Assembly: GCA_903915735.1 (NCBI GenBank)
Contig: CAIWUA010000047.1
Coordinates: 1 to 33,127 of the forward strand
DNA length: 33,127 nt
Source of the DNA: Candidatus Adlerbacteria bacterium
GTDB taxonomy: Bacteria; Patescibacteriota; Minisyncoccia; Phycocordibacterales; SBAW01
Direction of reading: 5' to 3'
Part shown: positions 325 to 31,169 of the stretch, piece after piece
Layout: each line of letters begins with the position of its first letter
Numbering within the stretch: the stretch's first letter is position 1
Notes under the pieces: model-generated
Databases searched by the model: none
The model's input: the letters and a program-made list of their open reading frames with translations, nothing else
Told to the model about the DNA's origin: nothing
Translations under genes and position numbers: made by a program

Positions 325-1578
325 ATGACACTCGAGCAATTTAAAAAAAAGGCTGCAAAAATCCCGGATGCGCCCGGGGTGTACTTTTTTTTGGCGAAAA
401 ATAAAAAGATACTGTACATCGGCAAAGCCACTAGCTTGCGTGACCGCGTGCGCAGCTATTTTGCCGGTGATTTGCATCAGGTGCGATCGCCGCTTATTGC
501 CAACATGGTCGAAAAGGCGGCTTCGATAGACTGGCGGCAAACCGACTCGGTGCTCGAGGCGTTGATACTTGAGGCAAATTTAATCAAGACCTACAAACCC
601 GCAGCAAATACTGACCTTAAAGACGATAAAAGCTTTAACTATGTAGTGGTCACGCAAGAGGATTATCCTCGCGTGCTAGTTGTCCGTGGCAGGGATTTGA
701 AAATTGAAAATTTAAAATTGAAAAATATTTTCGGTCCCTTCCCGCACGGGCTGCAGCTGCAGCAGGCGATGAAGTTGGTGCGCAAAATATTCCCATACCG
801 CGACAAATGTTTACCCTGCGAAGCCTTGGCGAAGAAGGGCGTGCGATGCAAACGTTGCTTTAACGCGCAAATAGGCTTGTGCCCCGGCGTGTGCTCGGGC
901 GAAACCAGCAAAGCCGAGTATGCTAAGACGGTGCGGCATATCGTGCTGCTCTTTAAGGGTAAAAAGAAAGAGCTTATAAAAGAGCTCGGCCGCGAGATGA
1001 AGCGCGCCGCTAAAGAAGAAAAGTTTGAAGAGGCCAAGCAGTTGCGTGGGCAGGTGTTTGCGCTCGGTCATATCCAAGACGTGTCTCTTATTAAAGACGA
1101 GTATCGAAACCCTCGGACATCCGATGTCCGAACTTTTAGAATCGAGGCCTATGATGTTGCGCACTTGCGCGGCGGCAGCAATGTCGGCGTGATGACGGTG
1201 GTCGAGGACGGGACGCCAAACAAAAAAGAGTACCGCAAATTTATCATCCGCACCGCCAAAGGTGGTGATGACGTCGGCGCGCTTAAAGAAATTTTGAGTC
1301 GTCGGTTGGGACACAACGAGTGGCCGCTACCGCGCTTGGTGGTGGTAGACGGCGCCACCGCGCAAATAAAGGCAGCCGAAAAGCTGCTTGAGTCGCTGGG
1401 GATAAAAATCCCCGTGGTCGGTGTAGTGAAGGACGAAAAGCATCGCCCGCGCGAGCTGCGCGGCGACAAAACAATAATCAAAGACCGCGAAAGGGATATC
1501 TTGCTGGCCAACGCCGAGGCCCACCGCTTTGCCATTGGCTATCACCGCAAAACCCTACGAAAAAGAGGGTATAATTAA
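325..1578 (+). CDS. uvrC: Excinuclease ABC subunit C (short form, no C-terminal HhH domain)
   Basis: GIY-YIG domain (PGVY...LYIGKA.SLRDRVRSYF), Cys-rich segment, UVR domain (EKFEEAKQLR), RNase H-like domain (RIEAYDVAH, VVDG, EAHRFAI). Follows uvrA. Confidence 0.93.
   Translation: MTLEQFKKKAAKIPDAPGVYFFLAKNKKILYIGKATSLRDRVRSYFAGDLHQVRSPLIANMVEKAASIDWRQTDSVLEALILEANLIKTYKPAANTDLKDDKSFNYVVVTQEDYPRVLVVRGRDLKIENLKLKNIFGPFPHGLQLQQAMKLVRKIFPYRDKCLPCEALAKKGVRCKRCFNAQIGLCPGVCSGETSKAEYAKTVRHIVLLFKGKKKELIKELGREMKRAAKEEKFEEAKQLRGQVFALGHIQDVSLIKDEYRNPRTSDVRTFRIEAYDVAHLRGGSNVGVMTVVEDGTPNKKEYRKFIIRTAKGGDDVGALKEILSRRLGHNEWPLPRLVVVDGATAQIKAAEKLLESLGIKIPVVGVVKDEKHRPRELRGDKTIIKDRERDILLANAEAHRFAIGYHRKTLRKRGYN
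697..724 (+). repeat. Heptamer tandem array (TTGAAAA)x4 inside uvrC
   Basis: TTGAAAA TTGAAAA TTTAAAA TTGAAAA, encoding LKIENLKLK. Reverse-complement family of the leuS array at 20353-20380. Confidence 0.85.
814..839 (+). repeat. 26-bp hairpin element (EALAKKG type) inside uvrC
   Basis: CCCTGCGAAGCCTTGGCGAAGAAGGG; 25/26 identical to 30804-30829 in ung. Confidence 0.9.
1113..1131. repeat. Palindromic element GGACATC-S-GATGTCC, copy 1 (inside uvrC)
   Basis: TCGGACATC-C-GATGTCCGA, 9-bp arms, encodes RTSDVR. Confidence 0.95.
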
Positions 1579-1581
1579 AAG

Positions 1582-2478
1582 ATGAGAACCGTGGTTGCGG
1601 TGTTGCGCGGCGGGCCGAGTAATGAGTATGACGTATCGCTCAAGACGGGGGCGAGCGTGCTTGGTGCACTCGACAAAGACAAGTACGAGGCGCGCGATAT
1701 TTTTATATCGCGCGGTGGCGTGTGGCACCTGCACGGCATCGAGATACATCCCGAGCGCGCCTTGCGCGGCGTCGACGTGGCCTTTAACGCGATGCATGGT
1801 GAGTATGGCGAGGACGGTGCGGCGCAGCGCTTGCTCGACAGTCTAGGTGTGGCATATACCGGCTCGGGCGCGCACCCGTCGGCGGTGGCTTTTGACAAGC
1901 ATCGCACGCGCGAGGCGGTCAAAAACCTGGGGGTAAAAATAGCCCATGGCAGGGTAGTGGATAATAGCGGCAGTGTCGAGAGTCTGGCGCACGAGCTCTT
2001 TCGTAGCTTCCCGCATCCGGCGATAATTAAGCCGGTCAGTGGCGGCTCATCTATAGGGATAGCGGTTGCAGAAAACTTTCATTCTCTGCAATGGGCTCTT
2101 GAGTGTGCATTCGAAATATCACCGCAGATATTGGTCGAAGAATATATAAAAGGCCGCGACGCAACAGTGGGTGTTATTGATAATTTTAGGAACGAAAAAA
2201 CATACACCACGATCCCGGTGCCGGTCAATTTTACCGAGCAAGAAAAAAATATATTAACCAATACAGCCCGCGCCGTGCACGAGGGGCTTGGGCTGGCGCA
2301 TTACTCGCGTTCTGACTTTATCGTCAGCCCGCGCGGCATCTACTTTTTAGAGGTCAACACCTTGCCGGGGCTTACCACCGAGTCGCTGCTCCCCAAAGCG
2401 CTCGAGGCCGGCGGGACCAAACTGTCGCATTTTCTCGACCATGTCATTTCGTTGGCGCGTGGTAGAAAACAAGCATGA
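1582..2478 (+). CDS. ddl: D-alanine--D-alanine ligase family ATP-grasp protein (omega loop apparently deleted)
   Basis: GGPSNEYDVS, HGEYGEDG, IIKP..GGSSIG, EEYI, SRSDF and LEVNTLPG motifs. Confidence 0.9.
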   Translation: MRTVVAVLRGGPSNEYDVSLKTGASVLGALDKDKYEARDIFISRGGVWHLHGIEIHPERALRGVDVAFNAMHGEYGEDGAAQRLLDSLGVAYTGSGAHPSAVAFDKHRTREAVKNLGVKIAHGRVVDNSGSVESLAHELFRSFPHPAIIKPVSGGSSIGIAVAENFHSLQWALECAFEISPQILVEEYIKGRDATVGVIDNFRNEKTYTTIPVPVNFTEQEKNILTNTARAVHEGLGLAHYSRSDFIVSPRGIYFLEVNTLPGLTTESLLPKALEAGGTKLSHFLDHVISLARGRKQA

Positions 2479-2807
2479 CCAAGCTGGCTAAAAAAAAGTG
2501 CAAGCCGTGCGAGGGCTGCGTCGACCCGCTGTACCCCGAGCAGTCCGAGGTGCTCTTAAAGCAGCTTAACCCCGAGTGGATGCTCATCGACCAGTGCCGC
2601 ATGCTGGCGCGTACATTTATCTTTAAAGATTTTAAACAGGCGCTCGCCTTTGCCAATAAGGTGGGCGCCATTGCCGAAGAGGAGGGTCACCATCCCGACC
2701 TCACCATAGGCTACGGCAATGTCGGGGTCGAGCTAACCACCCACGCCCTGGGTGGCCTCTCCGAAAACGATTTCATAGTGGCAGCCAAGATAGACGAAAT
2801 AAAATAA
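2475..2807 (+). CDS. phhB: Pterin-4-alpha-carbinolamine dehydratase
   Basis: AEEEGHHPDL, LTTHALGGLSENDFIVAAKID, N-terminal CKPCEG. ATGA overlap with ddl. Confidence 0.9.
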   Translation: MTKLAKKKCKPCEGCVDPLYPEQSEVLLKQLNPEWMLIDQCRMLARTFIFKDFKQALAFANKVGAIAEEEGHHPDLTIGYGNVGVELTTHALGGLSENDFIVAAKIDEIK

Positions 2808-2811
2808 CTCA

Positions 2812-2835
2812 GTAGTTAACTACGTAGTTAATTAC
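2812..2835. repeat. Tandem 12-mer palindrome forming a 24-bp near-perfect inverted repeat
   Basis: GTAGTTAACTAC GTAGTTAATTAC, lying between the convergent phhB and tRNA-Ala. Confidence 0.75.
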
Positions 2836-2842
2836 ATACTTG

Positions 2843-2915
2843 TGGACCCAACCGGGATCGAACCGGTCACCTCCTCATTGCAAATGAGGCGCTCTACCAA
2901 ATGAGCTATGGGCCC
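2843..2915 (-). tRNA. tRNA-Ala(TGC)
   Basis: Minus strand GGGCCCATAGCTCATTTGGTAGAGCG-CCTCA TTTGCAA TGAGG-...GGTTCGATCCC...TGGGTCCA. G3:U70 pair present; CCA not encoded. Confidence 0.97.
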
Positions 2916-2943
2916 TTATTAGATACTCTACCGTTTTTTGGGC

Positions 2944-2974
2944 AAAATAAAAAGCGCCCCCAGTTGGGGAGCGC
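2944..2974 (-). terminator. Intrinsic terminator for the 2981..3628 gene
   Basis: GCGCCCCC/GGGGAGCGC hairpin next to an A-tract (U-tract on the minus strand). Confidence 0.65.
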
Positions 2975-2980
2975 GTAATG

Positions 2981-3628
2981 TCAGGCAGGTTCTGGGCCAA
3001 ACGTGCCGCCTTTCGACCGGATGATGCTTTCGGCAGAAGGCATAGCCGGTGTCGGTGGTTCGGCCATGCGATTAAGCGCGGCTAGTACCCGTAGTCGGCG
3101 GAAGTGATGCCGCAACGGGGCCCAGACGAAAACATTCGACAGGCCGACTAATCCCAAAGCCAAAAACAAGTACGCGGACCAGTCATCGAACCCGAACCGC
3201 AGTAATCCGGCAATGCCTAAGACTAGGCAGAATCCGAGACCCGCGACGTCTTTAGGTCTTAAGGATTTTATTTCTGCCCAAGCTGACCATGGTTTTGTCC
3301 GCTCTTTTGCCAACCATATAACGTGTAGTGTTGGAGGATTAAGGAGCGGGTGAAAAGCCATCAACTTTTTGTCGGGTGTGATACCGAGAACGTAATAGAC
3401 CGAACCCCGCATAGGTTTGGGCTCGGCATAGATCACGACCTGATCGAGCAGGTTGCCGTGTTCGGTGAGATTGTAGTTGATGGCAAAGCGGACTTCTGAC
3501 GGCAGTCTGGCAAACTGCGCAAACGAACCGCGGCCACGAAAGGTAAAAGTGCTTTGTTTAAACGGCTCAAGCGCCGCTTGTACCACCGTCGCCTCGTCAT
3601 CGCTCAGGTAGCGCGCTATTTCGGTCAT
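2981..3628 (-). CDS. Hypothetical membrane protein (two C-terminal TM helices)
   Basis: 215-aa ORF, SD-like GGGAG upstream of ATG, hydrophobic hairpin, own terminator. No family recognised. Confidence 0.75.
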   Translation of the reverse strand: MTEIARYLSDDEATVVQAALEPFKQSTFTFRGRGSFAQFARLPSEVRFAINYNLTEHGNLLDQVVIYAEPKPMRGSVYYVLGITPDKKLMAFHPLLNPPTLHVIWLAKERTKPWSAWAEIKSLRPKDVAGLGFCLVLGIAGLLRFGFDDWSAYLFLALGLVGLSNVFVWAPLRHHFRRLRVLAALNRMAEPPTPAMPSAESIIRSKGGTFGPEPA

Positions 3629-3716
3629 GGCCGTCTCCCTTTTGTTACAAGTTGCGTCTGCAAAAAGTTAACCACATTTGTCGAGGTTAGACAATGTTTG
3701 CTATGATGCAACCACC

Positions 3717-3790
3717 GCACCTTTAGCTCAGCTGGTTAGAGCGCTGTACTCACACTACAGAGGTCTCAGGTTCGAATCCTGAAAGGTGCA
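3717..3790 (+). tRNA. tRNA-Val(CAC)
   Basis: GCACCTT acceptor pairs with AAGGTGC-A; anticodon arm CTGTA CTCACAC TACAG; GGTTCGAATCC T-arm. Confidence 0.95.
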
Positions 3791-3791
3791 C

Positions 3792-3820
3792 TTGACAGGA
3801 ATAGCAAAGGGGTGTATAAT
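3792..3820 (+). promoter_or_regulatory. Consensus sigma70 promoter
   Basis: TTGACA (3792-3797), 17-bp spacer, TATAAT (3815-3820): a perfect match. Confidence 0.85.
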
Positions 3821-3871
3821 GGCAACACCTCAGTTTGCGCAGTGCAGCTGATGAAATGAAAGGTCTTTCTA

Positions 3872-4033
3872 ATGTTGCCATCAACAAACCAGAGCGGGGC
3901 CTCTGGTAAAACACAGACCCCTAATCCGGCTGTCTGCAACTGTTGCGGTCGTCGCAAGCGTCTGGTCGAAGGGGTTTTGGTCTGCGCAGTCTGCGAGTCG
4001 GACAAGGCGCAGGAACCGGATCGCCAACGGTAG
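3872..4033 (+). CDS. Small zinc-ribbon-like protein, 53 aa (below the ORF track cutoff)
   Basis: MLPSTNQSGASGKTQTPNPAVCNCCGRRKRLVEGVLVCAVCESDKAQEPDRQR*; two CxxC knuckles; AAAGG upstream; lies between a perfect promoter and a terminator. Confidence 0.65.
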   Translation: MLPSTNQSGASGKTQTPNPAVCNCCGRRKRLVEGVLVCAVCESDKAQEPDRQR

Positions 4034-4087
4034 TCGGGGATAAAAATATTGTAAAAAGTGCGTGATGGCAGGGAGAAACGTCAAACG

Positions 4088-4122
4088 GGGTCGAGCTACT
4101 ATGCTCGACCCTTTCGCTTTTT
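4088..4122 (+). terminator. Intrinsic terminator
   Basis: GGGTCGAGC-tactat-GCTCGACCC followed by TTTCGCTTTTT. Confidence 0.8.
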
Positions 4123-4148
4123 ATTGCTATATTTGGGCTTACAGATTT

Positions 4149-4219
4149 CGGGCTGTAGTATACCGGTAGTACGCGCGCTTCGGGTGCGTGAAGACTGGGT
4201 TCGATTCCCAGCAGCCCGA
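4149..4219 (+). tRNA. tRNA-Pro(CGG)
   Basis: CGGGCTG/CAGCCCG-A acceptor; anticodon arm CGCGC TTCGGGT GCGTG; GGTTCGATTCC. Confidence 0.95.
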
Positions 4220-4245
4220 CAAGATGATATAGTTTTTTAGTTTAG

Positions 4246-4319
4246 GGGCCCGTAGTTAAGTGGTACAACGCTGCATTCGCATTGCAGAGGCGCGAGTTCG
4301 ATTCTCGCCGGGTCCACCA
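4246..4319 (+). tRNA. tRNA-Ala(CGC)
   Basis: GGGCCCG/CGGGTCC-A-CCA; anticodon arm CTGCA TTCGCAT TGCAG; G3:U70. Confidence 0.95.
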
Positions 4320-5111
4320 TTAGTAGTGTTCGGCTTTTCCGCGCCTAAAGACGCGATATAGGTACAAGTTGTACGCCATTACTATCGGTAAGAGCGGCAC
4401 TATCCCGTAGAGCATAAAGGTTAATGTTTTTGCCGAGGCGGCCGCATCGGTAATGGTTAAGCTGCCGGGGATCAAATAAGGATGCACGCTTAAGGCTACG
4501 ACGCAGGTGTTGACTACAAATGCACTAAGGAGGATGGTGTACAAATGGGTGCGCCAGCCGCGTGTGTTGGATGTTTTTTTAAGCAAATACGCATAGCCCA
4601 TCGCGCTGTACCCGACGATGATCCCCAGGGTGATAAAAAAGGTGAGCGGGGTCACCCAATCAAAAGGGCCGCCGGCAAACTGACCGTTACTAATGGTAAT
4701 GCCGCCCAAGAGTCCGCCGAGCGCTGCGCCTTGGCCGATAATTGCGAGCAAGCTCCCTAACCCAAACAGCAGACTCCAAAACCGCTTGCGCCGCGCAAGA
4801 GCGTGGAACTCAAACGAGGCTGCGCGGATAATAAGCCCAAAGAGTGTGAGCATAACGGGGACATATAGTGCGTTGAGTATGATCGAGTATCCAAGCGGGA
4901 AGGCTCCAAACAGCGTCCCGCCCGCGATAACCAACCAGGTTTCGTTGGCGTCCCAAATAGGGCCGATGGTTTGCATCATGAGCGACCTGCCCGACTCTTT
5001 GTTGGGCAAGAGTGAGAGGAACCCAAGCCCCAGGTCGGCGCCATCGAGCAGCACATACAAAGCCACCTCAAGACACACAATGCCAAACCAAATAGTCGGG
5101 AGGTTTATCAT
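4320..5111 (-). CDS. cydB: Cytochrome bd ubiquinol oxidase subunit II (shortened, 263 aa)
   Basis: YVLLDGADLG, IGPIWDANETWLV..GG.LFGAFP, IIRAASFEF and C-terminal Y..Y.YRVFR motifs. Overlaps the cydA stop. Confidence 0.93.
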   Translation of the reverse strand: MINLPTIWFGIVCLEVALYVLLDGADLGLGFLSLLPNKESGRSLMMQTIGPIWDANETWLVIAGGTLFGAFPLGYSIILNALYVPVMLTLFGLIIRAASFEFHALARRKRFWSLLFGLGSLLAIIGQGAALGGLLGGITISNGQFAGGPFDWVTPLTFFITLGIIVGYSAMGYAYLLKKTSNTRGWRTHLYTILLSAFVVNTCVVALSVHPYLIPGSLTITDAAASAKTLTFMLYGIVPLLPIVMAYNLYLYRVFRRGKAEHY

Positions 5112-6418
5112 ATTTTTGTCTCAAACTCGGGCCCGGTTTTGACGATGCGGTAGGTAAAATAAATAAACAGCGCGCCGAAAGCCAAATACATAAGCGTAAA
5201 TATGACGGTGGTAGCGGCGACGGTGGCCGGGTTGAGATTGCTCGAGACCCCCGCGCTCGTGCGCATGAGGTGGTAGACCACCCACGGTTGGCGGCCTATC
5301 TCGCGGACCATCCAGCCGGCCTCGGTTGCAACAAACCCAAGCGGCATGGCAAGCACCCATAGCCACAAGAATGCGCGGGTCTGAAGTTTATTTTTGTACC
5401 AGCACCACACGCCTGCGGCCATAAGAAAAAATAATATAAATCCGATACCCACCATCAGGCGGAACGACCAAAAGACTATAGTTGCCTCGGTGTCGATTGG
5501 GCGATCGTCGGCTGCAAAGTCGTTGAGGCCTTGTACGCGGCCGGTCGGGGAGTCGGTGAGCAGCATACTAAGACCGTTTGGTATAGACACCCCAGGCACT
5601 AACACAAGCGGCGCACCTTGGCCTGCCGGGTTGGTGTCAGAGTGCATCTCAAAGGCGGCGACCTTTTGGGGTTGATACTTAATTGCCACCAATCCGCTCA
5701 TGTGGCCGATTGCCAACTGCAGCGGCACCACGGCAATAGCAAGCACTAAACAGTATTTAAACGTATCCAAAAAGAAGTTCTTTTTTGCACTGTCTGCTTT
5801 CGACAAAAGTACGAGCGCGCAAATACCCGCCATCATAAACAAAGTTGTTTCGACGCAGGCGACCCACATGTGTGCAAACGACACGAGCGTGTCGGGGTTA
5901 AATATAGCGGCGCTGTAGTTTGAGACTATAAGTTTGCCGCCTTCGACGACGACGCCAACCGGCACTTGCATCCACGAGTTGGCGGCCATGATCCAAAACG
6001 CCGACAATGTCGCGCCGACAAAAATCATCGCGTTGGCAAACAGGTGCACCCCGCGACTAACCCGCTGCCATCCAAAAACAAAGATGCCAAGAAAAGCGGC
6101 CTCAAGCGCAAAGGCGACGGTCGACTCAAACCCTAGTACGTTGCCAAAAAAGTCGCCCGCTGCGCTGCTAAACGCCGCCCAGTTGGTGCCAAACTCAAAC
6201 TCAAGCGGGATACCACTCACGGTGCCTATGGCAAAAGTCAGGATAAAAATTTTAGTCCAAAAACGCAGTTGCCGATAGTAACGCTCGTCGTTGGTGTACA
6301 GCCACAGCGCCTCCATCACGAGCATAAATAACGACAGGCCGATCGACATAATCGGCCAAAGGATATGAAAAGCCGCTGTGTCGCCAAACTGCAGGCGCGA
6401 AAAAGCTAAGACGTCCAT
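5108..6418 (-). CDS. cydA: Cytochrome bd ubiquinol oxidase subunit I (short Q-loop type)
   Basis: SRLQF...FH (heme His), FEFGTNW, LSAFWIMAANSWMQ.P, FAHM, QPQKVAAFE, FRLMVG and EAGWMVREIGRQPW motifs. Confidence 0.96.
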   Translation of the reverse strand: MDVLAFSRLQFGDTAAFHILWPIMSIGLSLFMLVMEALWLYTNDERYYRQLRFWTKIFILTFAIGTVSGIPLEFEFGTNWAAFSSAAGDFFGNVLGFESTVAFALEAAFLGIFVFGWQRVSRGVHLFANAMIFVGATLSAFWIMAANSWMQVPVGVVVEGGKLIVSNYSAAIFNPDTLVSFAHMWVACVETTLFMMAGICALVLLSKADSAKKNFFLDTFKYCLVLAIAVVPLQLAIGHMSGLVAIKYQPQKVAAFEMHSDTNPAGQGAPLVLVPGVSIPNGLSMLLTDSPTGRVQGLNDFAADDRPIDTEATIVFWSFRLMVGIGFILFFLMAAGVWCWYKNKLQTRAFLWLWVLAMPLGFVATEAGWMVREIGRQPWVVYHLMRTSAGVSSNLNPATVAATTVIFTLMYLAFGALFIYFTYRIVKTGPEFETKI

Positions 6419-6427
6419 GTACTGAAT

Positions 6428-6437
6428 ATGCTAGCAT
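6428..6437. promoter_or_regulatory. Putative bidirectional extended -10 element (palindrome ATGCTAGCAT)
   Basis: Reads TGcTAGCAT on both strands, 8 nt from ATG 6446 and 9 nt from the cydA ATG, in a 27-bp divergent gap. Confidence 0.55.
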
Positions 6438-6445
6438 GACCAGCG

Positions 6446-6937
6446 ATGACCTTAACGACCCACGCTATAGTCGGCGCCGCGGCGGCAAGTTTTTTCCCAA
6501 CCATGCCGTACGCCGCGTTTGCCGCGGGGTTTGCAAGCCATTTGTTAATAGACAGTCTGCCGCATTGGGATGAAGGTTCGGCCGTGTTGCGCTCGATGCG
6601 TATCGACCCCCAAGGTCGTCGAGATATGAAGATAGGGAAGAGTTTTGTACTTGATCTTTTGTATTTAGCGGCGGAGAGTTTTGTCGGTTTAGCGGCCGGT
6701 ATTTTATTTTTTTCGGTGTGGCTGCAGGTACCGCTTGCTATCGTGCTTGTTGGTGTAGTGGCCGGCCTTTTACCCGACGCGCTGCATTTTGTATATTTTA
6801 AAACACGGTCAGTGCTTTTGCGCGACTTTGAGCGCTTTCATGCCTATATTCAACACGAGTACACAAACAAACTCTATCTTTTGGTAGAGGCGGCGTTGGT
6901 GGCCGGGGCGGTTGTGCTGCGCGCTGCTATTGGTTAG
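6446..6937 (+). CDS. Membrane protein resembling membrane-bound metal-dependent hydrolases
   Basis: N-terminal TTHAIVG, SHLLIDSLPHWD, GLLPD and FHAYIQH His/Asp motifs within hydrophobic helices. Confidence 0.7.
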   Translation: MTLTTHAIVGAAAASFFPTMPYAAFAAGFASHLLIDSLPHWDEGSAVLRSMRIDPQGRRDMKIGKSFVLDLLYLAAESFVGLAAGILFFSVWLQVPLAIVLVGVVAGLLPDALHFVYFKTRSVLLRDFERFHAYIQHEYTNKLYLLVEAALVAGAVVLRAAIG

Positions 6938-7382
6938 AGGCTTGATCAAACAAACTGTGTATATAGGCAGTAAAGGCCGCCGGAGCCTGGGCAAGGTTTG
7001 TCGTGTGCTGCACCAGCACACTTTGGAAGCGAGACGCAAGGTCGCTCGCTCGGGCATCTTCGCCTACTGCTTTAAGCAGGGTTACGCGGTCTGAAATGTG
7101 TTGGACATGTATACGCAGGCTGGTCATGATGTTTTGTTGCGCAGCACTGTCGAGCTTGTCGTGCGAGGCGAGTGCCTGCGCTTCGTCGAGCCGCACGGTC
7201 ACGACCGAAAGATCCCAGTTTGCTTTAGCGTCGCCTCCTTGAGCGAGCACCCCCTCGACGTTTTCGTTAATATCAGTTTTAAAGCCCCACAACGGGTCGC
7301 CGGGGAGCGCATGATCGGCCAGCAAGGCGGTACCACCACCAAGCGCCGCTGCAATAATAAGAGCAATAACTATCGCGGGCAT
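6927..7382 (-). CDS. DUF5667-like secreted/anchored helical protein
   Basis: N-terminal hydrophobic segment followed by ALPGDPLWGFK..NE and RLDEA motifs. Confidence 0.75.
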   Translation of the reverse strand: MPAIVIALIIAAALGGGTALLADHALPGDPLWGFKTDINENVEGVLAQGGDAKANWDLSVVTVRLDEAQALASHDKLDSAAQQNIMTSLRIHVQHISDRVTLLKAVGEDARASDLASRFQSVLVQHTTNLAQAPAAFTAYIHSLFDQASNQ

Positions 7383-7486
7383 ACCCTTAAGTATAACTGG
7401 ATATTAAATGGTGGGGATATAGATATTGACTAATTGTGTTGAAGTTGTACTATTCTCTCCAGAATCTTTGACCAAGGGAGGGAAGT

Positions 7487-7990: not shown

Positions 7991-7995
7991 GCGTC

Positions 7996-8028: not shown

Positions 8029-8053
8029 AGTTTGTGTTAAAATGGCCCTAAGT

Positions 8054-14931: not shown

Positions 14932-15888
14932 ATGGTCGAGGTCTTTGCGCTGGTTATCTATAGTGTGCAGTGGCTTGGCGTCGTACTCGGCGTCGGGGCC
15001 GAGGTCGTGCTCTTGGTGGCACATCTTATAGCGCTGCACCATCGCCAGCCGCAGTGGATAGAGAGCGTGCCCGCGGTGCGCGCGGCGCAGTTTATAGGCT
15101 TGTTGCTTATTGTCGCCTCGGGCGTGGCGGCGGTCGTGTATCAATTTTTAATAGGGGACACGGCGCCTTTGTTTATGGCCGTGTTTGGGTTTAAGTGGGC
15201 GCTTATTATCGCGCTTAGCGTGGCCTATATGCTCGAAAAGAATTTGCTTCGCGGCCACGCGGTGCTCGAGGGCTTTACCGGCGCCACCTGGCTCGCACTC
15301 TTTTTGGTGCATAGCGTTGCGCCCATATCGCCGTGGCTCGACCTTATACTTTTTTATACGGCGTGGATAATTGCCTTCGGCGTTGTGTGGGGCTCGTTTG
15401 TACTGTTGATGAAATATACGGGAAAAGGTTCGATCACAGCTCCGGCGGCGAAACTTCCTGATCAAAAGGTCCCTGGGTTTACTCGTCCTGCGGAAAAGCC
15501 GCAGGCGAGGCCAGACCATTTTGCTCAGAAAGTTTCGCCGCCTCCGCCCCCACCTGTTCCTAAACCTGTGCCCCCACCACCACCGCCTACTCCAATAGTC
15601 GTTTCTGCGCCGCCACCGCCTCCTCCTGCACCTAAACCTACACCTCCACCCGTGCCCTCCATAGCTTTAGCGAAGGAGGGACCGGCACCAGTGCTGGCAT
15701 CTAAGCCTATTAACTTGCCTGTTATAGAGCCGCTCGAGCTTGCCGCGCCGCGTGTTACCCAGGCTGCCAAACCTGCGGTTGCGCGCTACGCGCCCGACTA
15801 TGACCACATGCCTGGGCTTAGGGTGATGCCGCAGCGCGTCGAGGACCTGCATCTGCAAAATCGCGGCCCTGTGGTGCAGGCCGCATAA
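14932..15888 (+). CDS. Membrane protein (~5 TM) with proline-rich C-terminal tail
   Basis: Hydrophobic N-terminal half; poly-Pro runs at about 15535-15660. Confidence 0.8.
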
Positions 15889-23406: not shown

Positions 23407-23412
23407 AAAATA

Positions 23413-23424: not shown

Positions 23425-23431
23425 GAAATTA

Positions 23432-24808: not shown

Positions 24809-25833
24809 ACATCCCAAAATTAAAGCCAGGGTCGCATGTATTCCGCAGCACGGCCGTGTGTGACGAAAACTGCTGGGAGTGCCGCGCCTATGACCGCTTG
24901 CTGCCGCTGGCCTTTTTAGGCGGCGTTTTGCTGTATCTTATTTACTTTTTGACGCTCGGTGCGCCGATAGACTTCCCCATAGGGGCGTACGTGCGTGTTA
25001 AAGACGGCCAAACGCTGGGGCAGGTGGGCGAGCAGCTCAAAGCCAAACATCTTATCCGGTCGGTCGCTATTTTTGAGGGGTTGGTGCGGCTCATTGGCAA
25101 TGACAAAAAGATATATGCGGGTGAGTACTTTTTTTCGGGCAAAGAGAGCGGTTGGCGCGTGGCCGAGCGGCTCGCGTTTGGCGACTTTGAGTTGACGCCT
25201 ATACGCATGGTCTTTTATGAGGGGCTGACCGCTAAAGACATGGCCTCCTTGTTAGCTAAAAAAATACCCGACTTTGACGCCAACGCATTTTTTGCTGCCG
25301 GGCAACCCAAAGAGGGGTACCTGTTCCCCGACACCTACTTTGTCGTACCGGGCGAGGACCCGCTGCTGTTGCTGCGCTCGATGCAAAATAATTTTAGTAC
25401 GCACGTATTTACCGCGTCGAGCACGATAGCCAAGTTTGGCAAGCCGCTGCCCGACATTTTGGTGATGGCGTCGCTCCTCGAGCGCGAGGCTGCCGACAGC
25501 CAGAGCCGCCGCATGATAGCGGGCATTTTGTGGCACCGTATTGCTATCGGCATGCCGCTGCAGGTCGACGCCGTCTTCCCCTACATTATTGGCAAAAACT
25601 CCTTTCAACTGACCAAAGCCGACCTCAAGGTCGACTCGCCGTACAACACCTACACGCATAAAGGCCTCCCGCCCGGCCCCATAGCCAACCCCGGGATGAG
25701 CTCAATCGTGGCGGCCGTGACACCGATAAAGTCAAACTATCTATTTTACTTGTCTGACAAACAGGGCAACTTCCATTATAGTGCCACGTATGCGGGCCAG
25801 CTCGCCAACCAGCGCAAATATCTTGGATACTAA
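24805..25833 (+). CDS. mltG: Endolytic transglycosylase MltG
   Basis: EGYLFPDTY, ASLLERE, MPLQVDA and SPYNTY..KGLPPGPIANPG. Confidence 0.95.
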   Translation: MNIPKLKPGSHVFRSTAVCDENCWECRAYDRLLPLAFLGGVLLYLIYFLTLGAPIDFPIGAYVRVKDGQTLGQVGEQLKAKHLIRSVAIFEGLVRLIGNDKKIYAGEYFFSGKESGWRVAERLAFGDFELTPIRMVFYEGLTAKDMASLLAKKIPDFDANAFFAAGQPKEGYLFPDTYFVVPGEDPLLLLRSMQNNFSTHVFTASSTIAKFGKPLPDILVMASLLEREAADSQSRRMIAGILWHRIAIGMPLQVDAVFPYIIGKNSFQLTKADLKVDSPYNTYTHKGLPPGPIANPGMSSIVAAVTPIKSNYLFYLSDKQGNFHYSATYAGQLANQRKYLGY

Positions 25834-26884
25834 AGGCAAAAAAGTGTTTGCCGGCCTCTCCGGCGGGGTAGACTCGGCCGTGTCGGCGGCTTTGCTGCAG
25901 CAGCAGGGCTACGACGTGCACGGCGTGTTTATCCGCATCGCGCTGCCGGGCTACCCGTGCTCGGCCGGTGTCGACAAAATAGACGCCATGCGCGTGGCAG
26001 CGCATCTTAAGATTTCTTTTGTCGAGATAGACATGTCCGAGGAGTATGAAAGGGAGGTGTTTAAAACCAGCATGCGCGAGTTTGCAAAGGGTCGCACCCC
26101 TAACCCCGACGCGCTATGCAATCGCGAGATAAAGTTTGGCCTTTTTTATGAGTGGGCCATGAGTGAGGGCGCCGACTTTGTTGCGACCGGCCACTACGCC
26201 CAGGTTGATAGTCGGACATCCGATGTCCGACTATTGGCCGGGGCAGATGAGAACAAAGATCAAAGCTACTTTTTGTGGATGGTACCCGAAACAAAGCTGG
26301 CCAAGACACTCTTCCCCGTTGGGGGGATAAAAAAGCCCGAGGTCCGCGCGCTGGCTAAAAAGTTTAAGCTGCCCAACGCCGAGCGCAAAGACAGCCAAGG
26401 GTTGTGCTTTTTGGGCGAGGTCTCGATAGACGACATGTTGCATCGAGAGATCGAGCTGGTGCCGGGCGACGTACTCAACGAGGCGGGCGAGGTAGTGGGC
26501 GCCCATGAGGGCGCACAGGCCTACACGCTCGGGCAGCGGCACGGCTTTACTCTTTTTAGCCAAACGCCGGACTCGGTGCCGTACTATGTGATAGAGAAAG
26601 ATGTTGAGTTTAATACTATTACCGTGTCGCCCAACAAATTTCCTACCAATGCCGCCAAGACAGAGGTCTTGCTTACTGAAACTAATTGGATAGGTGAGAT
26701 AAAAAATGGTAATTATTTTGCACGCTATCGGTATCGGCAAGAACTAATACCGGCAATCAAAGAGACTGACAACAAAATTACTTTGCTCAAGCCGCATTAC
26801 GTGCCGCTTGGGCAGTCGCTGGTGCTTTATGAGGGGGAGAGATGCTTGGGCGGTGGTATTATTGACCGCGCTATAATAAAGTAA
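25823..26884 (+). CDS. mnmA: tRNA-specific 2-thiouridylase MnmA
   Basis: SGGVDS, TPNPD..CN..IKFG, ATGHYA, KDQSYFL, KDSQGLCF and YTLGQR. Probable TTG start at 25823 overlapping the mltG end. Confidence 0.95.
   Translation: MDTKGKKVFAGLSGGVDSAVSAALLQQQGYDVHGVFIRIALPGYPCSAGVDKIDAMRVAAHLKISFVEIDMSEEYEREVFKTSMREFAKGRTPNPDALCNREIKFGLFYEWAMSEGADFVATGHYAQVDSRTSDVRLLAGADENKDQSYFLWMVPETKLAKTLFPVGGIKKPEVRALAKKFKLPNAERKDSQGLCFLGEVSIDDMLHREIELVPGDVLNEAGEVVGAHEGAQAYTLGQRHGFTLFSQTPDSVPYYVIEKDVEFNTITVSPNKFPTNAAKTEVLLTETNWIGEIKNGNYFARYRYRQELIPAIKETDNKITLLKPHYVPLGQSLVLYEGERCLGGGIIDRAIIK
26208..26234. repeat. Palindromic element GGACATC-S-GATGTCC, copy 5 (inside mnmA)
   Basis: ATAGTCGGACATC-C-GATGTCCGACTAT, 13-bp perfect arms, encodes SRTSDVRL. 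Confidence 0.95.
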
Positions 26885-26887
26885 GTC

Positions 26888-27733
26888 ATGTCTATCCTCA
26901 TAGCGAAAGCCGACGGCACCCTAGAGCCTTTTGACGAACGCAAACTGGTCTCGAGTCTTTCGCGCGCCGGTGCCGAGGCCGCCGTTGCTGCACAAATAGC
27001 GCACGACGTGAGTGTTACGCTGCAGCCGGGCACTACCACCGGCGAGATATACCGGCGCGCCTTTGCCCACTTGCGCGAGCACAAGCGCGGCATGGCGGCG
27101 CGCTACAGCCTTAAGCGCGCATTGCTCGACTTTGGTCCGTCCGGATTCCCCTTTGAGTCATATTTGGCTAAGTTGTTCGAGGTCGAGGGGTGGCACACCA
27201 AGGTCGACCAGATAGTGCAGGGGCACTGCGTCGAGCACGAGGTAGACGTCGTCATGACTAAAAAAGACGCCGATAAAGAAAAAACAACCTACGTCGAGGC
27301 AAAATTTCATAACACGGCCGGCTTTAAAACCGATCTTAAAACCGTCTTGTATGTGCAGGCGCGCATAGAGGACATTGCCGCCAACTATCCCAAAGACCCT
27401 ACGCGTACCCGGGGCATGGTCGTCACCAACACCAAATTTACCGCGCCGGCGGTGCAGTATGCCGAGTGTCGCGGGCTCGAGTTGTTGAGTTGGGAGTATC
27501 CGCGCACCAATAACCTGCACGACCGTATCGAGGCGGCCAAGCTCTACCCGGTGACGGCGCTTACCAGTTTGAGTAAACGCGACAAGACCAATTTGCTTTC
27601 GCAGCGGTTGGTGTTGTGTAATACTCTTCCGCAAGAGACGCGGGCTCTGGCGACGGCCGGCATAACCGGTAAAAAAGCCGACGCCGTGCTCGAGGAGGTG
27701 GGGTCATTGTGTATACCCGGCACCGCCGTATAA
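26888..27733 (+). CDS. ATP-cone domain plus Mrr-like restriction endonuclease domain protein
   Basis: N-terminal I.KADG..EPFD..KL..SL (ATP cone); GFPFE, HEVDV, VEAKFH and VTNTKFT (PD-(D/E)xK). Confidence 0.85.
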   Translation: MSILIAKADGTLEPFDERKLVSSLSRAGAEAAVAAQIAHDVSVTLQPGTTTGEIYRRAFAHLREHKRGMAARYSLKRALLDFGPSGFPFESYLAKLFEVEGWHTKVDQIVQGHCVEHEVDVVMTKKDADKEKTTYVEAKFHNTAGFKTDLKTVLYVQARIEDIAANYPKDPTRTRGMVVTNTKFTAPAVQYAECRGLELLSWEYPRTNNLHDRIEAAKLYPVTALTSLSKRDKTNLLSQRLVLCNTLPQETRALATAGITGKKADAVLEEVGSLCIPGTAV

Positions 27734-27743
27734 TAGGGGCATT

Positions 27744-28352
27744 ATGAATACAAACAACGATAATAATAAGCAGACAGGACTTAGTTGGTCGGCACCACAA
27801 AACACACCCAAACCTTTTATGCCGCCGGTAAAACCTGCCGTTGTGCCAGTGACGGTTAAAAGCAACACTAATAATAACGCTGCAAAAATAGTCGGTTGGC
27901 TCGCTGTCGGTGTAGTCGCAGGTGTAGTTATTGCGTGGGGTGCAACATTGCTCTTTAAGCACGGTAACCAAACTCCGGTTAATAGTGCGGTACAAAATGC
28001 CACGTCCACAGCAGCAACCAACACTACATCCAACACCACTTCGACATTAATTGTCCCGACGCCGCAAAAGGCAGGACTCTCGGTCACGATAGAAAATGCG
28101 TCGGTGTCCGCGCCGACCTGGGTCGTAGTGTATGAGAGTCTTGATGGCAAACCGGGCAATGTGCTTGGTGCGGCTATCTTTAGTGCCGATCATAGCTCGG
28201 GCACGGTAGACCTTTTGCGCGGTACTATGGCAGGACAGACCTACTTTGTTACCGAGCAGAGCGACAACGGCGATCGCAGGTTTTCGCTTAAGGACGACAC
28301 GCTCGTTACGGTAGATAGTCAGCCGGTATGGGTCAGCTTTACTGCTAATTAA
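27744..28352 (+). CDS. Single-TM exported protein with Thr/Asn-rich linker and beta-rich domain
   Basis: One TM, low-complexity linker, Q.AG..V......V..P.WVVV.E...G.PG.VLGA domain. Confidence 0.8.
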   Translation: MNTNNDNNKQTGLSWSAPQNTPKPFMPPVKPAVVPVTVKSNTNNNAAKIVGWLAVGVVAGVVIAWGATLLFKHGNQTPVNSAVQNATSTAATNTTSNTTSTLIVPTPQKAGLSVTIENASVSAPTWVVVYESLDGKPGNVLGAAIFSADHSSGTVDLLRGTMAGQTYFVTEQSDNGDRRFSLKDDTLVTVDSQPVWVSFTAN

Positions 28353-28361
28353 TTAAAAAAT

Positions 28362-28835
28362 ATGCATCCAATACTCCAGTCAGAGGTAGTGCTTGAGCTT
28401 ATTGTCGCAACCGTGCTCGGCGCTGTGCTCGGGTTTGAGCGCTCGCTTGCAGGCAAACACGCCGGCATGCGCACCTATGCGCTGGTGTCGATGGGGTCGT
28501 GCCTGTTTACCGTCGCGGGGACATTGGCTGCGTTTGAGTTGTCGATATTTTCGGCCATCAATCCGCTGCTCATCGCCTCATCGGTGGTGGTCGGCATCGG
28601 CTTTATCGGTGCAGGGCTCTCGGCTACGCACGGCGAGGGCAACAACCATGCCGAGCTTACTACCGCCTCGGGTATCTGGGTCGCAGCGGGCATTGGTATG
28701 GCGGTTGCGTTTGGTTTTTACAGCATCGCAATCGCAGCCACCCTGCTTGGGCTGCTTACCTTTTCTCTCTTGGCAAACGTCGAACGTCGTTTGCGGCTCC
28801 GTTTTGGCGCAAAATATACCGAGAACAATAATTAA
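28362..28835 (+). CDS. MgtC/SapB family membrane protein
   Basis: LG.ER....K.AGMRT.ALV..GS.LF, VV.GIGFIGAG and LTTASGIW..A.IGMA. Confidence 0.92.
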   Translation: MHPILQSEVVLELIVATVLGAVLGFERSLAGKHAGMRTYALVSMGSCLFTVAGTLAAFELSIFSAINPLLIASSVVVGIGFIGAGLSATHGEGNNHAELTTASGIWVAAGIGMAVAFGFYSIAIAATLLGLLTFSLLANVERRLRLRFGAKYTENNN

Positions 28836-28880
28836 GGTAGAATGGCTCTATGAGCCCCGTTGGAGGAGCTCTCCAACAAA

Positions 28881-29747
28881 ATGAGTAAGTTCTACAAGCC
28901 CAACCGTAACCCCGACTACAGCTACGGGGGGCCTCGCTGGACGCTGTCTCGCTCTAAAATTGACCTCTTTATGGAGTGTCAACGGTGCTTTTACCTCGAC
29001 AACAAGCTTGGGGTGGCGCGGCCGCCCGGCTATCCGTTTAACCTCAACTCGGCGGTCGACGCGCTGCTAAAAAAAGAGCTCGACACCCACCGTGCGCAGG
29101 GCACACAGCACCCGCTTGCTAAGCAGTATGGGCTCGACGCTATCCCGCTTAACCATGAGCGCATGGATGAGTGGCGCGATGCGCTTAAGCGGGGAGTCAA
29201 GACGGTGCACCAAGCAACCGGGCTTACGGTGCGCGGCGGTGTCGACGACATTTGGATCAACAAAGACGGCGAGCTTATCGTCATCGACTACAAAGCCACC
29301 AGCAAAGACGCCAAAATAGAGTCACTTGACGAAGAGTGGCACCGCGGCTACAAGCGTCAGCTCGAGGTGTATCAGTGGTTGTTGCGCCAAAACGGGTTTA
29401 AAGTGTCCGACACGGGGTATTGGTTTTATGCCAATGCCACCAAAGACCGCGAGGCGTTTGACGGCAGGCTCGATTTTGAGTTAACGTTGGTGCCCTACAC
29501 CGGCTCGACCGACTGGGTCGATGGCGCCCTGATGCAATTAAAGGCTTGTTTAGACAGCGACACATTGCCCGCCTCCGGCACCGACTGCGACTATTGCCGC
29601 TATCGCGAGGCCGCCGGCAAGGCACTGCTGCCGTTTGGCTCGCGCTCGACACCTGCTGCAGAGTCTGCACCCGGCATCTTGCCCGGCAAAAAAATTGCGC
29701 ATGAAAAAGAAAAGGCAACCGACAACCCGACCGCGCACCTCTTTTAA
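28881..29747 (+). CDS. PD-(D/E)XK nuclease superfamily protein (RecB/Cas4-like, Cys-bracketed)
   Basis: SRSKI..F.ECQRCFY, GGVDD, IDYKAT, QLEVY and CDYCRY motifs. Confidence 0.85.
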   Translation: MSKFYKPNRNPDYSYGGPRWTLSRSKIDLFMECQRCFYLDNKLGVARPPGYPFNLNSAVDALLKKELDTHRAQGTQHPLAKQYGLDAIPLNHERMDEWRDALKRGVKTVHQATGLTVRGGVDDIWINKDGELIVIDYKATSKDAKIESLDEEWHRGYKRQLEVYQWLLRQNGFKVSDTGYWFYANATKDREAFDGRLDFELTLVPYTGSTDWVDGALMQLKACLDSDTLPASGTDCDYCRYREAAGKALLPFGSRSTPAAESAPGILPGKKIAHEKEKATDNPTAHLF

Positions 29748-30003
29748 ATCGTTTAGCGAGCGAGTGTGTTTGGTCGTGGCTAAAATCCCCAAGGGCAAAA
29801 CATTGTCATACAAACAGGTGGCGGCCAAAGCCGGCAACGCCAAAGCGGCGCGCGCCGTCGGTACGATCATGGCACACAACTACAACCCTAAGATCCCGTG
29901 CCACCGCGTCGTGCGCTCAGACGGCGGGGTAGGCGACTACAACCGCGGCGGCCCCATGCGTAAAATGGAACTGCTGATGGAGGAGGCTTACAGTTTGCGG
30001 TAA
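29701..30003 (+). CDS. MGMT/Ogt family methylated-DNA--protein-cysteine methyltransferase (single domain)
   Basis: IPKG...SY..VA..AG..KAARAVG and PCHRV active site. Start uncertain; in-frame ATG 29701 overlaps the upstream gene. Confidence 0.85.
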   Translation: MKKKRQPTTRPRTSFKSFSERVCLVVAKIPKGKTLSYKQVAAKAGNAKAARAVGTIMAHNYNPKIPCHRVVRSDGGVGDYNRGGPMRKMELLMEEAYSLR

Positions 30004-30012
30004 TATACGCAC

Positions 30013-30504
30013 ATGGACAACACTTTTTTGCACGAGGTTGCTATTACCGCCATTATTATCAAAGATGGCAAATATTTAATTACCCGCCGCTCGCCGAACA
30101 AAAAGCGCTTCCCGGGCATGTGGACGGTCCCCGGCGGTCGGCTCGAGGCCAAAGACTATTTAGCTCTGCCAAAAGATACCGAATTTTATTGGTACAACGT
30201 ACTTGAACGCGTTTTAGAGCGCGAGGTCAAAGAAGAGGTAGGTCTTACCATCAAAAACGTGCAGTACCTCACAAGTCTTGCGACCGTACATAAAGACGGC
30301 AGCCCCTCTATCGTGATCTCGTGCGTGGCAGACTATGACAGTGGCGAGGTGACGCTGCAAAAAGAAGAGACGGATGATTTTGCTTGGGTCACTACTGAAG
30401 AGTCAAAGCAATACCAACTCTTAGACGGTATCTTTGAGGAATTTGTGCAGATAGACAAGTTGAAGAAAACTGGTATTAAACCTCTATGGGAACGGGCGAA
30501 ATAA
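30013..30504 (+). CDS. NUDIX hydrolase
   Basis: W.VPGG...REVKEEVGL Nudix box containing an insertion. Confidence 0.9.
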   Translation: MDNTFLHEVAITAIIIKDGKYLITRRSPNKKRFPGMWTVPGGRLEAKDYLALPKDTEFYWYNVLERVLEREVKEEVGLTIKNVQYLTSLATVHKDGSPSIVISCVADYDSGEVTLQKEETDDFAWVTTEESKQYQLLDGIFEEFVQIDKLKKTGIKPLWERAK

Positions 30505-31169
30505 AACTCGAAGCTTCGTGGAAGGCGGCTTTGGCGGAGGAGTTTGGCAAAGAGTATTTTAAAAATCTTTCTGACTTTGTCCGTGGCGAATACACACACG
30601 GAGTAGTCTACCCGCCGCCCAAAAATATTTTTAGGGCTTTTGATTTGTGTCCGTTCGATAAAGTAAAAGTTGTGATACTCGGCCAAGATCCGTACCACGG
30701 CCCGGGCCAAGCCAACGGCCTCTGCTTTGCGGTGGGTGAGGGAGTTGCCCTGCCGCCGTCACTACAAAACATATACAAAGAACTCGCAGCAGAAACGGGC
30801 GCGCCCTTCGAAGCCTTGGCGAAGAAGGGGGACTTGGAACGCTGGGCTAAGCAGGGAGTGTTGCTTTTAAATGCAACGCTTACCGTGTCGGCCAAGAGCC
30901 CCGGCTCGCATCAAAAAAAGGGGTGGGAGGAGTTTACCGACGCGGCTATTAAAGCGCTGTCAGAGCAAAAAGAGCATCTGGTGTTTATTTTGTGGGGCAA
31001 CTATGCGCGGCAAAAAGGCGCACACATAGACCGCGCCAAACATTGTGTTATCGAGTCGCCGCATCCGTCGCCCTTTTCGGCCTACTCGGGCTTCTTCGGC
31101 TCAAAACCCTTTAGCAAAACCAACGCGTATTTAAAAAAGACGGGCCAAAAACCAATCGATTGGCTTTAG
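30486..31169 (+). CDS. ung: Uracil-DNA glycosylase (family 1)
   Basis: VVILGQDPYHG, GLCF, PPSLQNI, QGVLLLNA.LTV, LWG and HPSP.S motifs. Confidence 0.97.
   Translation: MGTGEIKLEASWKAALAEEFGKEYFKNLSDFVRGEYTHGVVYPPPKNIFRAFDLCPFDKVKVVILGQDPYHGPGQANGLCFAVGEGVALPPSLQNIYKELAAETGAPFEALAKKGDLERWAKQGVLLLNATLTVSAKSPGSHQKKGWEEFTDAAIKALSEQKEHLVFILWGNYARQKGAHIDRAKHCVIESPHPSPFSAYSGFFGSKPFSKTNAYLKKTGQKPIDWL
30804..30829 (+). repeat. 26-bp hairpin element (EALAKKG type) inside ung
   Basis: CCCTTC-GAA-GCC-TT-GGC-GAA-GAAGGG; matches 814-839. Confidence 0.9.

Follow-up and report, generated by a model that had tools for sequence, protein, structure and literature searches.

We identified a family of dispersed hairpin repeats that lie mostly within genes, on both strands and in several reading frames, that share a covarying hairpin, that are present, decayed, or absent at orthologous sites, and that are distributed across a bacterial phylum. 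Two of its copies account for a nearly identical 26-nucleotide (nt) stretch in uvrC and ung, which is therefore not a two-copy oddity. Both copies were found in a window of 33,127 nt, an entire contig from an assembly of a Candidatus Adlerbacteria bacterium (termed G000; 682 kb in 74 contigs, 55% G+C, 92.8% complete). We estimate at about 70% the probability that the repeat is a mobile palindromic element similar to repetitive extragenic palindromic (REP) sequences and Rickettsia palindromic elements (RPE), tolerated in protein loops and filtered by selection on the host proteins.

The copy in uvrC (positions 814 to 839, CCCTGCGAAGCCTTGGCGAAGAAGGG) and that in ung (positions 30804 to 30829, CCCTTCGAAGCCTTGGCGAAGAAGGG) are both on the + strand, are identical at 25 of 26 positions, and have an exact 21-mer in common (819 to 839 and 30809 to 30829). 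A search of the window with this 21-mer, allowing up to 3 mismatches, returned only these two matches, and none of 100 dinucleotide-preserving shuffles gave any. Each copy begins on a codon boundary. The first encodes PCEALAKKG, residues 164 to 172 of a 417-amino-acid (aa) uvrC-like open reading frame (ORF) on the + strand (325 to 1578) with the Pfam domains GIY-YIG (17 to 92), UVR (215 to 247), and UvrC_RNaseH (271 to 404). The second encodes PFEALAKKG, residues 107 to 115 of ung (30486 to 31169, + strand), a family-1 uracil-DNA glycosylase of 227 aa (Pfam UDG, E value of 4.4e-18). The uvrC copy sits between the GIY-YIG and UVR domains, inside a Cys-rich loop bounded by FPYRDKC and CFNAQIGLCPGVC, and the ung copy sits in a loop between NIYKEL and LERWAKQGVLLLN. 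A sequence-only reading of the window had pointed to this match, in one frame of two repair proteins and in these two loops, and the positions that we found agree with it. The T-to-G change that distinguishes the uvrC copy makes a Cys codon and yields a CxxC...CxxC arrangement; the Cys-rich segment binds a metal or an iron-sulfur cluster in other UvrC proteins. In an AlphaFold2 model of Ung (28-sequence alignment, mean pLDDT of 86.3), PFEALAKKG is predicted to lie in a short helix (108 to 112) between helices 91 to 104 and 118 to 122.

Such a plausible helical peptide, read in the same frame in both genes, is what a chance match, or the convergence of two unrelated proteins on EALAKKG, might produce. 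This explanation is refuted by the shuffles, by 24 further copies, some of them intergenic and others on the opposite strand or read in different frames, and by the orthologues: those that carry the peptide use the same codons, letter for letter in the Ung of genome G007 and with 1 difference in the UvrC of genome G011, so EALAKKG was not reached independently with other codons.

A regular expression (CGNAGCNTNNGCGNAG) retrieved 15 copies from the G000 genome, and their alignment (A1) has the consensus CTTG CCCTT CGAAGC YTTR GCGAAG TAGGG. We built a covariance model from A1 and ran it on the same genome, which gave 28 matches at an E value of ≤1, among them 26 at ≤2.3e-4 on 18 contigs. With the model, the uvrC copy extends from 807 to 844 (49.7 bits, E value of 1.6e-10) and the ung copy from 30797 to 30834 (47.4 bits, E value of 7e-10). 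The window holds a third copy, missed by the sequence-only reading, at 15648 to 15685 on the + strand (core at about 15655 to 15680; 38.4 bits, E value of 2.2e-7). It is a variant (CATAGC..GCGAAG) read in the sense direction as PSIALAKEG within a Pro-rich linker of a 318-aa ORF (14932 to 15888, + strand), which has no Pfam match and has relatives in 5/5 close genomes. The earlier proposal of a REP-like hairpin family is thus supported, and the possibility that only two copies exist fails. Here, "REP-like" refers to appearance and behavior, as several defining features of classical REPs are missing: an extragenic location, a GTAG or CGTC tag at one end, and the flanking of a gene for a REP-associated tyrosine transposase (RAYT). 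It is also, as had been claimed, distinct from the RTSDV palindrome (GGACATCCGATGTCC), a separate family of about 10 copies in G000.

We rest the hairpin on covariation across the family and not on its stability. The proposed pairs are formed in 86.7% of A1 cells (shuffles, 82.0%), with a covariation score of 0.198 (shuffles, 0.112); neither value was reached by any of 500 shuffles. As a control, we slid the partner column, and pairing fell to 30 to 58%. Two-sided changes are seen at 4 of 10 pairs, a measure that 64 of the 500 shuffles also reach. Pairing is preserved by compensatory substitutions, for instance from GCC/GGC to GCT/AGC (5 copies) and from CCCT/AGGG to CACT/AGTG or TCCTC/GAGGA. 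The core CGWAGC-tip-GCGAAG is fixed while the outer stem covaries and the tip varies in length; inner stems have 3 to 7 bp overall, and in some variants inner stems of 4 to 7 bp with unrelated sequences are enclosed by an unchanged CGWAGC...GCGAAG. The fold drawn in the sequence-only reading (a CCCTTC/GAAGGG stem, a GAA/GAA internal loop, and a GCC-TT-GGC tip) is indeed that of the ung copy (RNA, -14.3 kcal/mol; DNA, -5.4 kcal/mol, z score of -0.66). It does not hold for the uvrC copy, which has a G.A mismatch beside the CCCT/AGGG stem and whose minimum free energy structure is a different, weak fold (DNA, -2.4 kcal/mol, z score of +0.66); neither copy folds better than its shuffles. The third copy has a DNA fold of -6.1 kcal/mol (z score of -2.36).

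The conserved 5' leader is CTTG or GTG. GTAG is found inside the 3' arm (A1 columns 28 to 31) and is not terminal; its T is replaced in 9/26 copies and pairs or covaries with column 12. Most copies are singletons, and three head-to-head doublets, which resemble REPINs, occur in G000 (C66 1344/1436, C15 6813/6859, and C1 24281/24345), with more in G003, G069, G084, and G170. At the gathering threshold, Rfam 15 recognized only tRNA, tmRNA, and small-subunit rRNA in the window and six copy-bearing loci, and the repeat matched none of its families. We dropped the idea of a 33-nt unit that fits the reading frame by design, as clean gains measure 27, 30, 33, and 33 nt and nested units in genome G190 measure 31 nt.

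We then looked at where the 26 copies are located. Thirteen fall in 11 genes identified with Pfam (UvrC, Ung, TIM, ArgRS, beta-CASP RNase, RNase R, S16, an HhH-GPD glycosylase, PRTase, NusA, and a DUF5667 protein), with doublets in the C-terminal tail of the ribosomal protein S16 and in the DUF5667 protein, and 4 fall in long ORFs without a Pfam match, including the host of the third copy. Two copies are ambiguous, and 7 are intergenic, 2 of them after a terminator-like hairpin with a T-run and 5 abutting tRNA genes. Extragenic location, the rule for REPs, therefore does not apply to this family, as 17/26 copies lie within a gene or a long ORF. These 17 copies are in the sense (7) or antisense (10) orientation and use four of the six frames. 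The consensus is open in five frames; the sixth, which is that used in uvrC and ung, contains TAG, and the copies read in this frame have A or G for the T in 4/4 cases, versus 5/22 of the others (count from the aligned sequences). Judging from the intact ORFs of the hosts, the copies are probably translated, into peptides that differ with frame and strand. The use of both strands and several frames means that the family is not a shared peptide motif, and it argues against a single sense-strand RNA function.

Orthologous sites showed how copies come and go. uvrC orthologues were present in 41/41 genomes of our genus sample and ung orthologues in 21/24 other genomes of the genus; a contig scan with Ung found no additional close orthologues, the closest named relatives being labeled Candidatus Paceibacterota or Patescibacteria. 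We compared 22 Ung sequences from 24 loci, two of which could not be parsed. In 17 of the sequences, the site is occupied by a shorter loop (G.PL--KNK.GD.) unrelated to the element, whereas the Ung of G007 has the complete element with its CTTG leader and those of G019 and G021 have decayed versions. The ung gene of G006 carries an independent copy, in a different frame and a few residues downstream. The UvrC loop delimited by FPYRD.C.P and CFN is hypervariable in the 30 loci that we compared: 12 are short, 1 is intermediate, 8 are long without a detectable element, 2 (G000 and G011) contain this element, read in the same frame, and 7 have other palindromic inserts. One of these seven, in G006, looks by eye like a long-tip variant that the covariance model did not detect. 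In a second UvrC loop, G000 has the RTSDV palindrome and G044 a copy of the hairpin family. The Cys-rich loop of UvrC is a hot spot of palindrome turnover. The inserts in this loop (loci L039, L044, L051, L053, L061, L062, and L064) include TACAAAGG..CCTTTGTA types, CGGAGGACCGTCCTCCG, and a common GKGT.MP.TA segment.

The UvrC of G000 is short, its 417 aa giving no C-terminal helix-hairpin-helix domain in the Pfam scan. Orthologue matches span residue 1 to about 410 to 416, within open frames of 409 to 500 aa, and the match is broken into at least two pieces in 15/41 genomes, mostly near residue 130. An A+T-rich low-complexity stretch at positions 700 to 726 (aaaattgaaaatttaaaattgaaaaat) encodes KIENLKLKN, and other species (loci L055, L060, and L066) have insertions of 17 to 25 residues at this position.

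Four gains of whole units were clean. The HhH-GPD gene has 30 additional nt that are absent in 5/5 relatives, TIM has 33 nt directly after GHSERRA that are absent in 3/4 relatives and decayed in G007, an intergenic site of G007 just after a terminator has 33 nt more than that of G000, and the third copy of the window is a gain of 27 nt compared to G007. Twelve copies of G007 were fetched for comparison with G000, of which 9 could be aligned and scored, a tenth faces the empty intergenic site, and 2 aligned at one flank only. Three of the 9 scored sites are shared and near-identical; in the other six, the G000 sequence is of equal length or up to 15 nt shorter and mismatches at 36 to 50% of the aligned positions.

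Such loops of equal or near-equal length, which contain the element in one species and unrelated sequence in the other, are also what would be expected if the repeat spread or were renewed by short templated replacement (conversion, template switching, or an uptake-like drive) that overwrites partly similar loops. In favor of this mechanism, host sequence at empty sites can resemble the ends of the element (..GCC followed by TAGGGCGCG in TIM, TACTCCGCCAAAG beside the copy in RNase R, and CCCTT in Ung), and the same UvrC loops carry different palindrome families according to species. Yet nothing similar is found at the empty counterparts of the four clean gains (27 to 33 nt), a copy is nested within another in G190, and uptake sequences are far denser, with about one per kb compared to about 1 copy per 26 kb here. 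Moreover, equal length is also expected of an old shared insertion that has decayed in one lineage, because neutral sites are near saturation (37 to 54% of the codons of conserved residues differ). We consider templated replacement very improbable.

Assembled contigs from sequencing run X1 cover the first and third copies of the window with no differences, and none of the joints listed skips a copy; contigs of this kind cannot reveal rare excision or expression of copies. One contig of run X3 (rhizosphere metagenome, depth of 3.9 of 6) has an extra TC in the tip of the third copy, at position 15666, which may come from the copy of another organism.

We next considered the distribution of the family. 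In the genus, 31/61 genomes have a match at an E value of ≤1e-3 (0 to 26 copies per genome) and 30/61 have none; in the order, where nearly every genome represents a different family, 26/81 genomes match at the same threshold, with up to 31 copies, and 55/81 do not. At an E value of ≤1e-5, matches were obtained in 36/141 genomes of the phylum and were lacking in 105/141. The best foreign match, in G268, a genome of another class, scores 52 bits, equal to the copies of G000. Copies from other classes keep the core, with the leader CTTG or GTG in G159, G170, G208, G268, and G280 and the leader TCGCAGA in G163 and G190. In the latter genome (two contigs; loci L204 to L216), three copies are nested within another copy that they split between CGA and AGC, and all 17 model matches fetched are on the + strand. 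An exact 24-letter pattern also occurs in 8 IMG/VR viral contigs of 37 to 67% G+C, two pairs of which have identical flanks. Two identical copies form a 49-nt tandem in G163 (L222 526 to 612), with the spacer CTTACCTGCTTACCTGTCGCAGA.

Six copies from three genomes abut or overlap, with their 3' end, the 3' end of a tRNA gene that runs on the opposite strand; three of these genes encode tRNA-Leu. The copies are C28 930 to 967 (Leu-caa), C34 18109 to 18152 (Gly), C66 1344 to 1393 (Ile), and C71 1987 to 2024 (Cys) of G000, L218 (Leu-tag), and L219 (Leu-caa), and most belong to a CACTT..AGTAGTG subfamily. A copy accompanies tRNA-Leu(caa) in G000 and also in G170, a genome from another order of the phylum. 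In G280, two sense-oriented copies are found between tRNA genes. Two other features lie near copies in G000. A tmRNA gene (Rfam, 111.7 bits) occupies positions 574 to 953 of contig C1 (L001), about 2.5 kb from two copies. On C66 (L009 1 to 1820), the 3' end of the 16S rRNA gene is followed by tRNA-Ile, the head-to-head doublet, a 105-aa GIY-YIG ORF (1400 to 1717), and tRNA-Leu; the ORF may represent a gene of the homing endonuclease kind, located in the rRNA spacer.

At some shared sites, the hairpin is more conserved than its surroundings. Between G000 and G011, the UvrC hairpin is identical at 27/28 positions for a flank divergence of 37% (P = 4e-5); between G000 and G007, the hairpins in PRTase and Ung are identical at 30/31 and 27/28 positions for flank divergences of 28% (P = 5e-4) and 21% (P = 0.01), respectively. 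Overall, these nucleotide tests gave P values from 4e-5 to 0.013. At the codon level, UvrC shows 0/8 synonymous changes against a background of 51% (P = 0.0035), and Ung shows 1/9 against 37%, short of significance (P = 0.10). All of these tests are biased toward conservation by ascertainment, since pairs were chosen because both members still match the model. When the decayed sites are also considered, the copies look bimodal, some seeming maintained or renewed and others abandoned.

These data bring up the alternative that the hairpin is a maintained nucleic acid signal, acting as structured RNA or as single-stranded DNA recognized by a conserved protein of the Patescibacteria, and hence a second, overlapping code, which would be compatible with mobility. 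Conservation across the phylum up to the 52-bit match in another class, occurrence in viral contigs, an internal loop that is conserved while the tip varies, and base-level conservation at coding sites such as that in UvrC all speak for it, as do the tRNA genes abutted in 6/6 cases on the opposite strand and the single strand used 17/17 times in G190. Still, we find it unlikely. With 7 sense and 10 antisense copies in the hosts, no single RNA motif is transcribed; about half of the genus and most of the order and phylum genomes are unmatched, and no Rfam family corresponds. The partner has decayed at 6/9 sites between G007 and G000, and the conservation tests suffer from the bias just described, with a codon test for Ung that falls short of significance. 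In a more far-reaching form, the hairpin would be a phylum-wide signal kept under base-level selection in essential genes for want of intergenic space, recognized by a hairpin-specific protein, perhaps a domesticated RAYT-like nuclease, with old copies renewed in place. This form seems to us doubtful too; if it were true, uvrC, ung, and other genes would carry a second code.

We then searched for an enzyme that could move the element. G000 encodes three Y1 (HUH) tyrosine transposases of 203 to 213 aa, on contigs C53, C60, and C66, which score above the cutoff of Pfam Y1_Tnp and have visible HxH and GxLxQGRY motifs. The best NCBIfam match of all three is "REP-associated tyrosine transposase" (NF047646), with 66.9, 46.3, and 46.7 bits for a cutoff of 80. 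The sequence-only reading had suggested a check for an association with a tyrosine transposase; the genome does encode RAYT-like proteins, but their genes are not next to any copy. The C60 gene (L013, ORF 1291 to 1902) is accompanied by a different, perfect palindrome, TACCGAGGTT/AACCTCGGTA, at 1260 to 1280, 1447 to 1467, and 1876 to 1906. The first of these sites lies just upstream of the gene, the second is internal, and the third spans its 3' end. Since this palindrome flanks the gene, pairs of the REP-RAYT type do exist in G000. Across the genus, a Y1 gene was found in 14/17 genomes with at least 5 copies and in 22/44 of the rest (Fisher P = 0.04), in genomes that are related to one another, as they are in all our co-occurrence tests. 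In the order, 9/80 genomes have an orthologue of the C53-type Y1, and the element is present in 6 of these 9 (Fisher P = 0.023). In the genus, only 4/8 genomes with a C53-like Y1 (long Pfam coverage, 53 to 72 bits; our own classification) have it, and the high-copy genomes G007, G071, and G074 lack this type. The C66 and C60 types, found in about 50/80 genomes of the order, are too common to be informative. A link with the TnpA of G048 was rejected, as the element about 1 kb away is not the end hairpin of that insertion sequence (IS). We propose, tentatively and with less than even confidence, that the element is mobilized as single-stranded hairpin DNA by a RAYT-like Y1 (HUH) transposase.

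Coming back to the mobile palindromic element as a whole, we envisage a unit of about 30 nt in which the leader (CTTG or GTG) is followed by a hairpin with CCCTT/TAGGG as its outer stem, a conserved purine internal loop (CGWAG/CGAAG), and GC(Y)-tip-(R)GC as its inner stem. Nonautonomous copies would arrive by insertion and, in a gene-dense genome, would mostly land in genes. Survivors would be those in permissive surface loops that leave the reading frame intact and bring no stop codon; the repeat would then be translated as 9 to 11 extra or replaced residues and would decay slowly. The uvrC and ung copies would be old, given that other species have them at the orthologous position.

Several results weigh against this proposal. 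The bimodal picture is the main one that a purely selfish-passenger model does not predict: at some sites the hairpin is conserved at the base level, whereas such a passenger should decay. A near-identical sequence across a phylum and in viral contigs is unusual for REP families, and the number of copies, only tens, is low compared to classical REPs. Simple insertion does not account for all sites, since many loops changed in length by much less than one unit (Ung +6, NusA +3, beta-CASP +12, ArgRS +15, and RNase R +18) and three sites compared between G007 and G000 did not change at all. Nearest-neighbor energies are unremarkable. As for the transposase, no copy flanks a RAYT gene: a search with filters off found none in the roughly 3-kb surroundings of each Y1 gene of G000, one of these loci ending at a contig edge just upstream of the gene. 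Co-occurrence is weak, as the presence of any Y1 gene and that of any copy are not significantly associated in the genus (Fisher P = 0.20) or in the order (Fisher P = 0.086), and some copy-bearing genomes have no detectable Y1 gene, among them G092, which is 100% complete and has 3 copies. A link with the classical IS200-type TnpA of G052 was rejected as well, for the end hairpins of the IS differ from the element, which lies 230 bp upstream of the TnpA gene.

If our proposal is right, some lineage-specific insertions and variable loops, such as the Cys-rich loop of UvrC, would be remnants of mobile DNA rather than adaptations, and the family would offer a compact natural test of the tolerance of TIM, ArgRS, and Ung to a foreign peptide. 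REP-like elements would be able to persist nearly unchanged across a phylum, which bears on whether REP-RAYT systems are parasites or long-term residents. Should the base-level conservation be real, it would make a clear case of overlapping codes for protein and structure. Patescibacteria (candidate phyla radiation) are held to have streamlined genomes, yet that of G000 contains several short palindrome families, and many of the genes in which the hairpin repeat lies are essential housekeeping genes. The RTSDV palindrome is found in uvrC at positions 1114 to 1130 (CGGACATCCGATGTCCG), its 12-mers occurring about 10 times in the genome, and further short palindromes (CCTGCCGGCAGG, ACTACGATATATCGTAGT, AAAGAGCTCGAGCTCTTT, CGCGCTTGCCGCGC, and AAACTAGGACATC/GATGTCCTAGTTT) are each repeated 8 to 15 times, making the genome palindrome-rich despite its small size.

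An element of this kind is already known. The novelty lies in the phylum, in the conserved purine internal loop, in how often the copies of a minimal genome fall inside genes, in how widely the sequence is conserved, and in a hint that coding copies are maintained at the base level. In a limited search of the open-access literature, we did not find the core 16-mer or its variants, nor, among the matches listed, any work linking the candidate phyla radiation, Patescibacteria, or Parcubacteria with REP or RAYT.

Part of the study by Di Nocera et al. (2013, PMC3733652) describes intragenic REPs with GTAG/CGTC tags, predominantly as head-to-head dimers, many of them in UvrABCD, RecBCD, and polymerase genes, and equates some with Rickettsia RPE-4 and RPE-6. 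The hairpin repeat resembles REP/REPIN-RAYT systems as an imperfect dispersed palindrome of about 30 nt with a patchy copy number among relatives, with head-to-head doublets, with copies after terminators, between convergent genes, and in DNA repair genes, and with RAYT-like Y1 genes encoded in the genome. It differs from them in that it lacks a terminal GTAG or CGTC tag, is intragenic in about two-thirds of cases, and has a core conserved across a phylum, whereas REPs are conserved across a species or genus.

Two other systems share some features with it. As in the end hairpins of IS200/IS605 elements and in palindrome-associated transposable elements (PATEs), the mismatch-bearing hairpin could be recognized as single-stranded DNA by a Y1 HUH enzyme, and it has a short 5' leader; in contrast, G000 has no IS200-type TnpA and the repeat forms no pair of left and right ends around a cargo. 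Like uptake sequences (USS/DUS), it is a short motif present in coding regions in tolerated frames, at times facing non-motif sequence of equal length, but unlike them it has hairpin covariation, only 26 copies in 682 kb (about 1 per 26 kb), whole-unit insertions, and no match in half of the congeners searched.

A further parallel is with RPEs, which, in the passages of a review that deal with them (PMC10969869, citing Ogata et al. 2000), are inserted in frame in Rickettsia genes, measure about 150 bp, and encode a peptide conserved in one frame. The hairpin repeat does not have the 100 to 150 bp of RPEs, being about 30 nt long, and it uses four frames and both strands in another phylum. Like them, it is a palindrome found in frame in housekeeping genes that are unrelated to each other, in a bacterium with a small genome and a dependence on other cells, and it would be translated as an extra peptide where the protein tolerates it.

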